A model generated the notes under the pieces. That model worked only from the letters and a program-made list of their open reading frames with translations. It did not search any database and was not told the DNA's origin. Shown here one piece after another: positions 143-25,989 of a DNA stretch of 64,000 bases. Position numbers and translations under genes: made by a program. The DNA is from Dehalococcoidia bacterium (GTDB lineage Bacteria > Chloroflexota > Dehalococcoidia > GIF9 > AB-539-J10). Each line of letters opens with the position of its first letter. Positions within the stretch are counted from its first letter, which is position 1. The DNA is taken from positions 1,074-65,073 of the forward strand of contig JBAVCL010000010.1 of assembly GCA_049586675.1 (NCBI GenBank), given 5' to 3'.

Positions 143-2245
143 GTGGTAAAAGCAGTACTTGAGGTAAAGGATAAGCTCATGTCGCGGACATTCCCTTTGG
201 AAAAAATACGGAATATAGGGATCATCGCTCATATAGATGCTGGCAAGACCACGGCTACAGAGATGATACTCCACCATACAGGACGTACCTACAAGATTGG
301 CAGTGTGGATGAGGGGACTGCGGTAATGGATTGGATGGAGCAAGAGAAAGAGCGAGGCATTACTATTACTTCAGCAGCTACCACATGTCACTGGCGGGAA
401 CATTGTATAAACATCATTGATACTCCTGGGCATGTGGATTTCACTGCTGAGGTAGAGCGTAGCCTCCGTGTATTAGATGGTGGTGTCGTGATTTTCGATG
501 GTGTAGCTGGAGTGGAAGCTCAATCGGAGGCTGTGTGGCGCCAGGCAGATAAATACCATGTGGCGAGGATTTGCTTTGTTAACAAAATGGACAGGATTGG
601 CGCTGATTTTGAGCACACGTTGACCATGATTAGTGAAAGGTTGCGGTGCAAGGCGTTACCTATACAGTTCCCCTTGGGAAGTGAAAAGGACTTTCGAGGC
701 ATCATCGACCTTGTAGAAAATAAAGTCATCGCTTTCCCTGATGAGTCTAATTCAGCTTCAGTTAATGAAGGCGAGGCTTTGCTGGATAAGCATCGTCAAG
801 CATTAATTGGAAACTTAGCGGAACTCGATGAGCAGATTATGCTGGCCTACCTTGATGGGCAAGATATCTCTACCTCTCAAATTAAGACAGCCATAAGAAG
901 GCTGACCATTTCTAACTGTATGGTACCGGTCCTTTGTGGCAGTGCCTTGAGAGATAGAGGTATCCAGTTATTGCTTGATGCTATTGTAGATTACCTTCCC
1001 TCGCCGCTAGATATTCCTCCCATCTCGGCTACACATCCTGAAACTGGAGAGAAAGTCCTTCGTCTGGCGAGCGATGATGACCCTTTTTCTGCGTTGGCGT
1101 TTAAAACGGTTTTTGACCCGTTTATGGGCCGACTGGTCTACTTGCGTGTATATTCAGGCAGCGTAAAGGCCGGGGCCCAAGTCTTGAACTCTACTATAGA
1201 TAAGAAAGAGAGATTAGGGAAACTATATGTTATGCATGCCGATCACCGTGAGGAGATAGACCATGCCGAGACTGGGAGCATTGTAGCTACTGTGGGGCTT
1301 AAGATGACATCCACAGGTGACACCCTTTGCGAGTCCAGACGGCCAGTGCTTTTTGAGGCTATACGATTTGCTGAGCCGGTGCTTTCCATGGCTGTTGAAC
1401 CCAAAAGTAAAGCCGACCAAGACAAATTAGATGATTCCTTGGCTAAACTTGCTATGGAGGATCCCACCTTCAAGGTTTACCATGACAAAGAAACAGGCCA
1501 AACTTTAGTTTCGGGGATGGGTGAACTTCATCTCGAAGTGTTAATGGAACGTATATTTCGCGAATATGGTATAAGGGTCAATGCTGGTAGGCCTCAAGTC
1601 GCTTATAAGGAAACAATCGCCATTCCTGTGGAATCTGAAGGGAGATTTATTCGTCAATCTGGTGGTAGGGGGCAATACGGGCACGTTTGGCTTAGAATCG
1701 AGCCAGGTGAGCGTGGCAGCGGCTTTGAGTTTCGTGACCAGATTCGAAGTGGGGCCATACCTAAAGGATTTACTCCCTCAGTAGAAGCTGGTGTCAAGTC
1801 GGCTTTACAAAGTGGAGGATTAGCTGGTTACCCTGTAATAGATGTAAAGGTGACTTTGTATGACGGGAGTTTTCACGAGGTCGATTCTTCGGATGTGGCT
1901 TTCAGGATGGCAGCCTTCATGGCTATGAGGGATGGGATAGATAAAGCTAAACCTGTTATTCTCGAGCCAATTATGGAAGTGGAAATAACAACTCCCAATC
2001 AGTCCCTAGGAGACATCATTGGCGATCTAAACTCTCGAAGAGCTCATATCGAAGGTATTGAGAGTCGTGATGAGGTCTCTGCTATCCGTTGTCTTGTTCC
2101 TCTCGCGGAAACATTTGGTTTCGCTGGAGATTTGAGGTCGCTCAGTCAAGGGAGGGCGAGTTATACTATGTGCTTTCATCGCTATAAAGAATTGCCTCAG
2201 GATTTGGCTGAGCAAATTGCAGCTAGAGTGGGAAGGATCAGATGA
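143..2245 (+). CDS. fusA: Elongation factor G
   Basis: 700 aa ORF with GTPase P-loop [17 protein letters not shown] and EF-G domains; position after rpsG. Confidence 0.95.
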
Positions 2246-2550
2246 CTGAGCAAAAAGTTCGTATCAAAATCAAAAGCTTCGATCATAGGTTGGCTGATCA
2301 AGCTGTAAAGAAAATAGTAGAAGCAGTGGAGCGTACCGGGGCTATCGTGGTTGGCCCGGTACCTTTACCCACACATATCGAAAAGTTTTGTGTTATTCGT
2401 TCCCCTAACATTGATAAAGATTCTAGGGAGCAGTTTGAGATCAGAACTCATAAGAGGTTAATCGATGTTTTGCAGCCAAGTTCCAAGACTGTAGATGCCT
2501 TAAGCCAGCTCGACTTGGCATCTGGAGTGGAGATAGATATTAAGTTATAG
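2242..2550 (+). CDS. rpsJ: 30S ribosomal protein S10
   Basis: 102 aa, [15 protein letters not shown]... S10 signature; overlaps fusA stop (ATGA). Confidence 0.95.
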
Positions 2551-2558
2551 TTAAGGCC

Positions 2559-3185
2559 ATGTTTCCAGGCATTATTGGTAAGAAAATAGGTATGACGCAA
2601 CTGTTTCAGGAAAGCGGAGAGACGGTGGCGGTAACCGCTATTCAAGCTGGGCCTTCTGTGGTAACTCAGATAAAGAGCCGAGACAGGGATGGTTATGATG
2701 CTATCCAAGTGGGCTTTATTGAGAACAAAGTGAAGCAGTCTCAGCTTAGCTCTCCAGAGAAGGGACATCTTCGAGGCTTAGAGAATGTTCACTATCTTCG
2801 CGAATTCAGGACTGATGATATTAGCTCGGTTAATCATGGTGACAAAGTGGATGTTGGCTTCTTAAAGCATGGTGACTTGGTAAATATCACTGGCTTTTCT
2901 AAGGGCAGGGGTTTTGCTGGTGTGGTGAAGCGGCATCATTTTGCCGGTGGGCCGAAGACCCATGGCCAAACTGATCGCCATCGCGCCCCTGGTTCAATTG
3001 GGGCTACCACTTTTCCTGGTCGGGTGCTTAAAGGGAAACGCATGGCGGGACATATGGGAAATAGGAGAGTAACAGCGCGTAATCTCGAGGTAATTCAAGC
3101 TGACCCAGAGCGAAATTTGCTTTTGGTGAAGGGTGCAGTACCTGGAGCCAATGGGGGACTTTTAGTAATTGAGAAAGTAAGGTAA
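2559..3185 (+). CDS. rplC: 50S ribosomal protein L3
   Basis: 208 aa, GKKIGMTQ...FAGHMGN motif typical of L3; S10 operon order. Confidence 0.93.
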   Translation: MFPGIIGKKIGMTQLFQESGETVAVTAIQAGPSVVTQIKSRDRDGYDAIQVGFIENKVKQSQLSSPEKGHLRGLENVHYLREFRTDDISSVNHGDKVDVGFLKHGDLVNITGFSKGRGFAGVVKRHHFAGGPKTHGQTDRHRAPGSIGATTFPGRVLKGKRMAGHMGNRRVTARNLEVIQADPERNLLLVKGAVPGANGGLLVIEKVR

Positions 3186-3191
3186 CAGGAA

Positions 3192-3815
3192 GTGCAAGTG
3201 CCAGTTTATAGTTTAAACGGTGAAGTTGTTGAGCAAATAGAGCTGAACCAGGCTATTTTTGATCTTCCGTTTAATGAGGCCGTAGTGCACCAGGCGATGG
3301 TAAGACAATTAGCCAATGGACGTCAAGGTACTGCGTCTACCAAGACTAGGGGGGAAGTTAGTGGGAGCACAAGAAAGCTTTATCCCCAAAAGCATACTGG
3401 CAGGGCGCGAAGGGGGGATATAAAATCACCCCTGCTCAGGGGAGGTGGGATAGTTTTTGGCCCCAAGCCACGCACCTATCGCCAAGCGATGCCCAAAAAA
3501 ATGAGGAAGTTGGCTTTGAAATGCCTACTCTCCGCTAAAGTTAGAGAGGGAAATATAAAACTGGTACAGGAACTTAACTTTGAGAATCCCAAGACAAAAG
3601 ATATGATTAATGTTCTATCCTCGCTTGGCGTTGATTCTTCTGCTTTAATTCTTACTGCTCAATCCACACCCATTGTGGTTAAATCAGCGGCTAATTTGCC
3701 TGAGGTCAAAGTCCTACCTGCGGCGCTAATTAATGTATTGGATTTGCTTTCTTATAAAATGCTGGTAGCCACTGTGCCGGCAATACGTAACATTGAGCAA
3801 ATTTGGGGTAAATAA
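3192..3815 (+). CDS. rplD: 50S ribosomal protein L4
   Basis: 207 aa, operon position and L4-like sequence. Confidence 0.9.
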
Positions 3816-3816
3816 A

Positions 3817-4101
3817 TTGCATCTTTACGAAGTTCTGCGGCGTCCTTTAATTACAGAGAAGGCTACTTCGCTTAAGGAGAAAGATAAATATGCCTTTGAG
3901 GTAGCGAGAAAGGCTACCGAGTCTCAGATTAAGGAGGCAGTGGAACAAGCTTTCAAGGTAAAGGTAAGAAAAGTCAATGTGATGATGGTGCCCGGGAAGA
4001 CAAGAAGGTTTGGCAGGAGACAAGTAACTAACTCGCCCTGGAAAAAGGCAATAGTTACCTTGGCACCGGGACACAAAATTACTTTCTTTGAGGGTGTCTA
4101 A
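3817..4101 (+). CDS. rplW: 50S ribosomal protein L23 (start set at TTG 3817 after rplD stop; ORF track gives 3793)
   Basis: HLYEVLRRPLITEKA... L23 N-terminus; GGGGT RBS-like 8 nt upstream of TTG. Confidence 0.85.
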   Translation: MHLYEVLRRPLITEKATSLKEKDKYAFEVARKATESQIKEAVEQAFKVKVRKVNVMMVPGKTRRFGRRQVTNSPWKKAIVTLAPGHKITFFEGV

Positions 4102-4196
4102 TGGGTTCAGTTACCAAGTGGAGAAGAAAGAAGATGTCCAAGCACCAGCATAAGAAGCTTCTTAAGAAGACTCGCTGGCAAAGGACGCATAAATAA
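4101..4196 (+). CDS. 31-aa highly basic peptide, bS22-like candidate small ribosomal protein
   Basis: ATG overlaps rplW stop (TAATG); translation MGSVTKWRRKKMSKHQHKKLLKKTRWQRTHK* resembles actinobacterial bS22 ([21 protein letters not shown]...) as recalled from memory; it sits immediately before the AAGGAG RBS of rplB. Confidence 0.5.
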   Translation: MGSVTKWRRKKMSKHQHKKLLKKTRWQRTHK

Positions 4197-4206
4197 GGAG
4201 TGATTT

Positions 4207-5046
4207 GTGGGATTAAAGACCTATGAGCCAACTTCTCCAGGCAGGAGATTTATGTCTGGCGCTACTTTTGAAGAGCTAACCAGGGTAGCTCCTGAGAAAT
4301 CATTACTAGCGCCGCTGAAAAAGAAGGCAGGGCGTAATAGCCGGGGGGTTATAACTGTGCGTCACCGCGGTGGTGGCAGTAAGCGCAAACTTCGCCTTAT
4401 CGATTTTAAGAGGGATAAAATTACCGTTCCAGGAAAAGTAGCTTCCATTGAATATGACCCTAATAGGGCAGCTCGCATTGCTCTAATTCATTATGCTGAT
4501 GGAGAAAAGCGCTATATACTCGCCCCTTTGGACATCAAGTTGGGTGATACTGTACAGGCGGGCGAGGATGTTGATATAAAACCTGGGAATGCTCTGCCAT
4601 TGGAGTCCATTCCTGTGGGAACTTTAGTGCATAATGTTGAGTTTGAGCCAGGCAAAGGGGGAAAGCTTGTTCATAGCGCAGGAAGTTCTGCCCAAATTAT
4701 AAGCACGGAGGGCCAATATGTTGTACTTAAACTCCCTTCGGGTGAACTGCGTAAATTTCATCAAAAGTGCTGGGCTACTATTGGTCAGATAGGCAATGTT
4801 GACCACGGAAATATAAAATTAGGCAAAGCTGGGAGTAGGAGATGGTCAGGTTGGCGGCCTACGGTCAGAGGTTCTGCTATGACTCCTCGAGACCACCCAC
4901 ATGGGGGTGGTGAGGGCAGAGCTCCCCGAGGAATGAATCCGAAAACCCCCTGGGGGAAGCCAGCTTTGGGGGCTAAGACACGTCGCCGTAAAACGTCGGA
5001 TAAAATGATCCTTAAACGGAGGAAGCAGAATGTCACGGTCGCTTAA
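4207..5046 (+). CDS. rplB: 50S ribosomal protein L2
   Basis: 279 aa, [11 protein letters not shown]... and C-terminal GGGEGR motifs of L2; GTG start after AAGGAG. Confidence 0.95.
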
Positions 5047-8437: not shown

Positions 8438-8623
8438 ATGGCGAAGTTATCTAGGATTGTCAAGTCAAAGCGGCCACCAAAGTATGGGGTACAGCAACGT
8501 AATCGTTGTCAATTATGTGGCAGGCCGCGTGCTTATATGCGCAAATTTGGCTTGTGTCGTATTTGTTTTCGAGAGCTTGCTTTAACTGGTGTAATCCCTG
8601 GGGTAAGAAAGTCAAGCTGGTAA
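8438..8623 (+). CDS. rpsN: 30S ribosomal protein S14 type Z (zinc-binding, 61 aa)
   Basis: 61 aa with [23 protein letters not shown] Cys4 motif. Confidence 0.93.
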
Positions 8624-13986: not shown

Positions 13987-14045
13987 TTTGACAGGTTAAC
14001 CAAGAAAGTTTATCATAATAAGGTTTGTGTGAACGGTGATTGGAA

Positions 14046-14159
14046 ATGAAAGTGAGAGCTTCGGTTAAGCCGATATGCAGAAAATGCAAGGTTATCAGGC
14101 GAGGAGGGGTGGTTAGGGTTATTTGTGAGAATCCCAAGCATAAACAAAGGCAGGGGTGA
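14046..14159 (+). CDS. rpmJ: 50S ribosomal protein L36
   Basis: Not in ORF track. ATG at 14046 gives [37 protein letters not shown] (37 aa, zinc ribbon C..C....C..H); conserved position between infA and rpsM. Confidence 0.9.
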
Positions 14160-25825: not shown

Positions 25826-25989
25826 GGCATATCCTCCTAGTAAAAAATATTTACAGCATACTGAGAGAGCTCAGAAACTGATTTGGAAAAACGTGCGAGA
25901 TGGCGGCCACGACGTTTTCGCCCACGGCGGAAAAAATCCGGCCCGTCTCGTCGTTCAGACTGATGAAGTATGATTGTTCCGGCATATAC

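Follow-up and report, generated by a model that had tools for sequence, protein, structure and literature searches.

A putative bS22 gene between rplW and rplB in the S10 operon of Dehalococcoidia

The small-subunit ribosomal protein bS22 first came to light in 2017-2018, in structures of mycobacterial ribosomes. It occupies the h44/h45 pocket of the small subunit together with h2 and h27, and its contacts with the 23S rRNA have been assigned to H67, H68 or H70 (PMC10618245, PMC7797042, PMC12123416, PMC10085706). In 2023 the protein was still termed "Actinobacterium-specific" (PMC10085706), and later cryo-EM work found it in Bacteroidota and in Borrelia. In these lineages it was discovered from cryo-EM density, not from sequence, the genes having been missed or labelled hypothetical in annotation, and that of Borrelia, bb0822, has a GUG start. 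The F. johnsoniae and C. acnes proteins are 37% identical (PMC10085706). Lys-16 of M. smegmatis bS22 reportedly touches the backbone of h44 and modulates (lowers) sensitivity to kanamycin. The searchable literature describes bS22 for Actinobacteria, Bacteroidota and Borrelia only. Here we put forward, on sequence grounds, that a short open reading frame in the S10 operon of a Dehalococcoidia bacterium, situated between rplW and rplB in the 64,000-nucleotide stretch of DNA that was analysed (the window), very probably encodes bS22.

The small reading frame and its family

The window carries a fusA / S10 / spc cluster of ribosomal genes on the + strand (Table 1), in which rplB is followed by rpsS, rplV, rpsC, rplP, rpmC, rpsQ, rplN, rplX, rplE, rpsN, rpsH and further genes. 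As originally predicted, an ORF of 31 codons begins on the rplW stop codon, the TAA (4099-4101) and the ATG of the ORF (4101-4103) having one A in common to give TAATG. Its frame differs from the frames of both rplW and rplB, and its stop codon lies 10 nt ahead of the rplB start, a spacer length that recurs in 37 of 63 sequences (window counted). Gene calls on loci L001-L006 give a 94-aa PF00276 product whose end is the start of the small ORF. The encoded peptide, at 31 aa, falls within the approximately 30-33 residues of bS22 and is very basic; its content of Lys and Arg is 13 (9 K and 4 R), one fewer than first counted, with 3 His in addition and no acidic residue. A scan for promoters and terminators, which overall was not enriched relative to shuffled sequences, gave no such site between rplW and rplB, and Rfam at gathering thresholds returned only tRNAs across the whole window and nothing near the small ORF.

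Table 1. Coordinates of genes and signals in the window
Feature	Position	Strand	Remarks
fusA	143-2245	+	window gene cluster
rpsJ	2242-2550	+	window gene cluster
rplC	2559-3185	+	window gene cluster
rplD	3192-3815	+	window gene cluster
rplW (uL23)	3817-4101	+	TTG start, 94 aa; last codons GAG GGT GTC TAA
SD-like GAGGG	4090-4094	+	6 nt 5' of the ATG of the putative bS22 gene, within the rplW 3' end
Small ORF (putative bS22 gene)	4101-4196	+	31 codons plus TAA; translation MGSVTKWRRKKMSKHQHKKLLKKTRWQRTHK
AAGGAG, Shine-Dalgarno of rplB	4195-4200	+	overlaps the stop codon of the small ORF (4194-4196)
rplB (uL2)	4207-5046	+	GTG start, 279 aa
rpsN	8438-8623	+	61 aa
rpmJ (bL36)	14040-14159	+	small basic ORF
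26-codon ORF	25883-25963	+	MEKRARWRPRRFRPRRKKSGPSRRSD; 50% K+R

The resemblance to bS22 was noted in the original prediction, which named a search with family profiles as the check, and it holds up under that search. The peptide matches the NCBIfam equivalog NF047430 (ribo_bS22) over its full length (residues 1-31 on model 1-31 of 31) with 56.9 bits and E 1.6e-15, the curated cut-off being 34 bits, and it passes Pfam PF08213 COX24_C (formerly DUF1713) with 33.5 bits (residues 1-28 on model 1-28 of 33) at a gathering threshold of 23 bits; PF08213 is also precomputed for orthologous gene calls. Among all PDB chain sequences the best matches are bS22 of Cutibacterium acnes and Mycobacterium ribosomes, which align without gaps from residues 1-29 to 1-29 (chain 8crx_X, E 6.1e-6; 9e16_x and the 5o5j/5o61 group, E 1.1e-5), and 19 of 29 residues, by our count, are identical to M. 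smegmatis bS22. When all six frames of the window were scanned with a Dehalococcoidia bS22 profile, this ORF was the sole match (70 bits, the next ORF reaching 8 bits), and the window therefore holds a single bS22 copy; the profile contained the peptide itself, so that the scan speaks to uniqueness in the window and is not independent evidence of identity. An AlphaFold2 single-sequence model has an extended N-terminus and a helix at residues 14-30 with moderate confidence (mean pLDDT 79), and a Foldseek comparison of the model with the PDB gave 0 matches, a result that is uninformative for one short helix of 31 residues.

A search of 1.8 billion sequences with the peptide gave 32 matches at E <= 1e-3, a count that is no guide to family size because a 31-aa query has low statistical power against so large a set. 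With a 62-aa concatenate of two natural variants as the query, all gene calls retrieved (39-109 aa) were over-extended at the N-terminus, but they gave access to further genomic contexts. At locus L088 (1897-2226, P0028) a 109-aa gene call has a perfect bS22 core, MGSVVKKRRKKISKHKHRKMLKKTRWQRRH, at its start and then approximately 79 more residues, which reflects either a lost stop codon or a metagenome assembly error. The 90%-identity clusters of the 31-aa peptides hold implausible members, a 496-aa Rhizobium ApeA-domain protein and a 905-aa protein, along with 'Micrarchaeia archaeon' and 'Krumholzibacteria' labels; these indicate artefacts of clustering or contigs that were mis-binned, and not the true distribution of bS22. 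Within the ribosomal cluster of the window the only other small basic ORF is rpmJ, which is expected there and ordinary, and rpsN is of the equally ordinary short zinc-ribbon type (CxxC...CxxC). The highly basic 26-codon ORF farther downstream (Table 1) lies in a 164-nt gap between two minus-strand ORFs, does not match the bS22 profile and is probably due to chance.

The ORF had been described as unannotated, which proved an overstatement, as the identical protein of related MAGs has a name at NCBI already. GenBank records of these call it 'AURKAIP1/COX24 domain-containing protein', newer ones have '30S ribosomal protein bS22 [Dehalococcoidia bacterium]', and some older NCBI records use 'aurora kinase A-interacting protein'; the AURKAIP1/COX24 and aurora kinase names both derive from eukaryotes, although the protein is a bacterial ribosomal one. 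Given these names, we are dealing with neither a new family nor a generally missed gene, and the locus reveals no new mechanism. In one JGI/IMG record (P0032) the identical 31-aa peptide is labelled 'large subunit ribosomal protein L2', a label that has probably spilled over from the adjoining rplB. For annotation, the locus illustrates how readily a gene of 31 codons that starts with TTG or GTG is missed or mislabelled in a ribosomal operon. No description of bS22 in Chloroflexota or in an S10 operon was found in the searchable literature, whose coverage leaves out most subscription journals, and within it neither the occurrence of bS22 in Chloroflexota nor its clade-specific insertion, with translational coupling, in the S10 operon appears to have been described.

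Conservation in Dehalococcoidia and the species without the gene at this junction

Frameshifts and stop codons in related genomes had been named as the observation that would speak against the gene, and the relatives keep the frame. We scanned one genome per species with the uL23 of the window and obtained 80 loci whose uL23 proteins are 68-96% identical to it, all of them labelled as Dehalococcoidia or Chloroflexota MAGs with the exception of L072. Of these 80 species-level loci, 62 have an intact orthologue of 31-32 codons between the two genes and one more (L047) has a copy cut by the contig end; wherever the rplW-rplB spacer measures 105 nt or more, the frame is intact, save in L072. On 14 public contigs, gene calls place the identical peptide between PF00276 (uL23) and PF00181/PF03947 (uL2). 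With the window counted, the start codon is ATG in 46 cases, TTG in 15 and GTG in 2. GAGGG precedes the start in all but one of the 45 loci of the overlap type (L024 has GAAGG), and the separated type mostly has an equivalent purine-rich motif (GGAG, AGGGG or GAGG); L052, L059 and L060 have only a weak upstream SD-like motif or none.

The 62 full-length sequences (window counted) comprise 56 distinct DNA sequences that encode only 29 peptides. Positional entropy at codon positions 1, 2 and 3 is 0.27, 0.28 and 0.90, the third being approximately three times the others, and the pooled Nei-Gojobori pN/pS is 0.15 in the frame of the ORF versus 1.75 and 1.46 in the other two frames. These values indicate strong purifying selection on the ORF. 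No variation occurs in the clade at fifteen residues, including G2, V4, K6, R8, K11, K14, H15, K19, L21, R25, W26, R28 and H30. Codon 16 (4146-4148 in the window), the equivalent of M. smegmatis Lys-16, encodes Gln in the window, and among the 62 sequences Gln occurs at this position 31 times, Arg 20 times and Lys 11 times.

An ORF this short and this biased in composition might have arisen by chance in a spacer rich in lysine codons, or might be a mis-called N-terminal extension of uL2, as the L2 label in the JGI record would have it. Against this stand an E-value of 1.6e-15 to a curated equivalog, the absence of any second six-frame match in the window and a frame kept in 62 species, and we regard the chance that either explanation is correct as close to negligible. 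The uL2 extension was rejected outright, as the frame is not that of rplB and a stop codon intervenes 10 nt before the rplB start.

The remaining 17 of the 80 species do not have the ORF at this junction. In 14 of them rplB starts 3-39 nt after rplW, and the other three (L068, L085 and L072) have rplW-rplB spacers of 65-145 nt without an ORF. Degraded remnants of bS22 were sought in these three spacers and none was found, only short GC-rich inverted repeats. Those in the 65-73 nt spacers of L068 (approximately 1737-1801; for example GAAGGGGCGAAACCCCTTC) and L085 (approximately 2786-2858) could form hairpins within the operon. The 145-nt spacer of L072 (JAIWFK010000006.1, approximately 2786-2930) is on a contig labelled Calditrichales, which is probably mis-binned because its uL23 and uL2 fall within the ORF-less Dehalococcoidia clan. 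All 17 ORF-less species form one clan on a neighbour-joining tree of uL23 and uL2 built without an outgroup, and a single event therefore accounts for presence versus absence. The MAGs that carry the label Dehalococcoidaceae belong to this clan, as do most with the label Dehalococcoidales. On the same tree, which is approximate and effectively unrooted, the ATG start with its TAATG overlap is derived within a large subclade to which the window belongs, while the deeper branches have a TTG start 2-148 nt past the rplW stop. Four further loci of the S10 type occur in an arbitrary sample of 80 metagenome loci, all of low GC and with the tail TRWQR..H[PK]; one of them, L150, has a uL23 identity of only 64%, and the arrangement thus extends beyond the 80 genomes.

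These comparisons also bear on whether it is the peptide or merely the act of translating it that matters. A start that overlaps the rplW stop and a stop that overlaps the rplB Shine-Dalgarno sequence are what one would expect to see in a coupling or leader ORF, one that would hand ribosomes over from rplW to rplB or regulate rplB. However, the amino-acid sequence is itself constrained (pN/pS 0.15), homologous bS22 genes are found in unrelated contexts with no rplB downstream, and sister genomes join rplW directly to rplB over 3-22 nt, so that we give the coupling function on its own very little credence and favour a gene that is kept for its bS22 product. In the ORF-less clan the same rplW 3' end (GAAGGTG..TAA/TAG) is just 3-22 nt away from rplB. 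It probably supplies the Shine-Dalgarno sequence of rplB only at the tightest of these junctions, L057 with its 3-nt gap, because the other ORF-less spacers have a purine run of their own.

Genomic homes of bS22 and its proposed role

The original prediction remarked that a position inside the S10 operon would be unusual for bS22, and this is borne out: in no sampled lineage outside this Dehalococcoidia clade did we find the gene there. In high-GC (62-66%) Chloroflexota, which carry the NCBI labels Dehalococcoidia or Chloroflexota, bS22 lies between proB and proA (L091-L100, L115 and L134), in some cases with a thiolase/OB-fold pair in between; the flanking genes were confirmed with TIGR01027 (408-432 bits) and NF001221 (approximately 571 bits). 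In Candidatus Dormibacteraeota it stands alone, flanked by one gene for an acyl-CoA dehydrogenase and one of the PLD family (L087, L089, L124, L129, L180 and L187), and in Nitrospirota it is a stand-alone gene after that of a CoA-enzyme activase. The Actinomycetota order is proC / (phosphatase) / excisionase-type HTH / (CLP1_P) / bS22 / epimerase (for example, L104). Of the 27 Actinomycetota-type loci whose upstream sequence extends to 2 kb or more, 14 have proC no farther than 3 kb away. Two phyla, the high-GC Chloroflexota and the Actinomycetota, thus place bS22 amid proline-biosynthesis genes, a linkage that may be old.

The metagenome sample mentioned above was an arbitrary 80 loci (L108-L187) retrieved with a degenerate DNA pattern of the conserved N-terminal core. 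The 79 that were classed comprise 43 loci of the Actinomycetota type, 4 of the Dormibacteria type, 2 of the proB/proA type, 1 of the Nitrospirota type, the 4 of the S10 type and 25 unclassified. Two of the Actinomycetota-type loci (L138 and L165) encode peptides identical to mycobacterial bS22. At eight divergent unclassified loci the neighbours were examined and no ribosomal gene was found among them; they were panB, an M50 peptidase, DciA, a nitroreductase, a TPR protein, a sigma-54-type activator, LpxK, a Band_7 protein and an AmiA-like amidase.

We propose that translation of the bS22 gene in the window is coupled to that of rplW by the TAATG overlap together with the SD-like GAGGG, a motif that the C-terminal codons of uL23 (E-G-V) form. 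With this coupling at the start and the overlap of the stop codon with the rplB Shine-Dalgarno sequence, the gene would be expected to be co-transcribed within the S10 unit and its product to be made in step with the core ribosomal proteins. The inserted gene would have taken over the rplW-proximal coupling position and brought with it a new AAGGAG for rplB. The ORF would be translated and its product incorporated into the 30S subunit, where, by homology with the described bS22 proteins, it would sit next to the decoding centre, filling the pocket that h2, h27, h44 and h45 of the 16S rRNA make up, and would touch the 23S rRNA, forming an extra intersubunit bridge. The position in the operon and the apparent coupling to uL23 and uL2 argue that bS22 would here be a constitutive and not an accessory component of the ribosome. 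In M. smegmatis, bS22 is dispensable, and an essential role is therefore not to be assumed here.

A peptide of the bS22 family could also act chiefly outside the ribosome. Free C. acnes bS22 is antimicrobial and inhibits translation in vitro (PMC10085706), and eukaryotic mS38/Cox24 is reported to act selectively on the translation of certain mRNAs (PMC6582356). The location between two core ribosomal-protein genes and the coupling to them argue instead for stoichiometric use in the ribosome, and neither a signal peptide nor an export partner is present nearby in the window. We consider a chiefly extraribosomal role highly improbable and retain the ribosomal one.

More tentatively, and as a combination of events that is rather unlikely to be right in every part, we envisage a single move of bS22 into the S10 operon, a sister clan that does not have the ORF and an ancestral locus among proline genes. 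On such a history, bS22 would have become an obligatory core ribosomal protein, stoichiometrically co-expressed, in a large uncultured clade of Dehalococcoidia. The sister clan is without bS22 at the S10 site and may be without it entirely, and if the latter is true, then ribosomes of a single class differ in composition. The ancestral bS22 gene would have lain among proline-biosynthesis genes, in settings like proB-bS22-proA of other Chloroflexota and proC-HTH-bS22 of Actinomycetota, as part of an old linkage across the Terrabacteria. A search of the window for proB and proA, made with this relocation in mind, found neither. For ribosome evolution, the locus provides a clade-specific change to the S10 operon, and it makes three alternative homes of one tiny gene available for comparison.

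Comparison with known bS22 proteins and related systems

The closest characterized relatives of the window peptide are the bS22 proteins of Actinomycetota (M. smegmatis MSMEG_0945, M. tuberculosis and Cutibacterium acnes; PDB 5o5j, 5o61 and 8crx), which belong to the same curated family. They are of similar length (33 aa versus 31 in the window), are likewise highly basic and have in common with the window peptide the core MGSV-K-RRK-MSK--H-KLL--TR-QR. The window protein differs from them in having Trp 7 and Trp 26, in having Gln for Lys-16 and in being without the C-terminal KLGK tail, and its gene lies in the S10 operon in place of the proC / HTH / bS22 / epimerase setting. The other Chloroflexota and the Dormibacteraeota have bS22 proteins of 31-32 aa with the same TRWQRR-type C-terminal half and the same NCBI names as in the window, but their genes are outside ribosomal operons.

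The bS22 proteins of Bacteroidota (Fjoh_1533; P. gingivalis AAQ66340.1) and Borrelia (bb0822) are also small, basic, helical peptides that occupy the h44/h45 pocket, which the window peptide would share by homology, although they are much more divergent in sequence. Their genes presumably lie outside the S10 operon, to judge from the locus tags and the positions of the S10 operons. Mitochondrial mS38 (AURKAIP1/Cox24) has a C-terminal domain that also belongs to PF08213, with weak direct matches (E 0.009-0.2), and both mS38 and eukaryotic eL41 have an analogous binding site on the small subunit. In eukaryotes the two proteins are encoded in the nucleus, mS38 being 128-200 aa in length with long N-terminal parts and eL41 a single unbent helix.

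With respect to the operon, the gene order in the window is otherwise identical to that of the canonical bacterial S10 operon (rpsJ-rplC-rplD-rplW-rplB-rpsS-rplV-rpsC-rplP-rpmC-rpsQ), except that rplB, which canonically comes straight after rplW, is here separated from it by a 96-nt gene. A close sequence homologue of bS22 is a conserved gene in many Dehalococcoidia, and the S10 operon, which is among the most conserved of bacterial gene clusters, here unusually has it built in.
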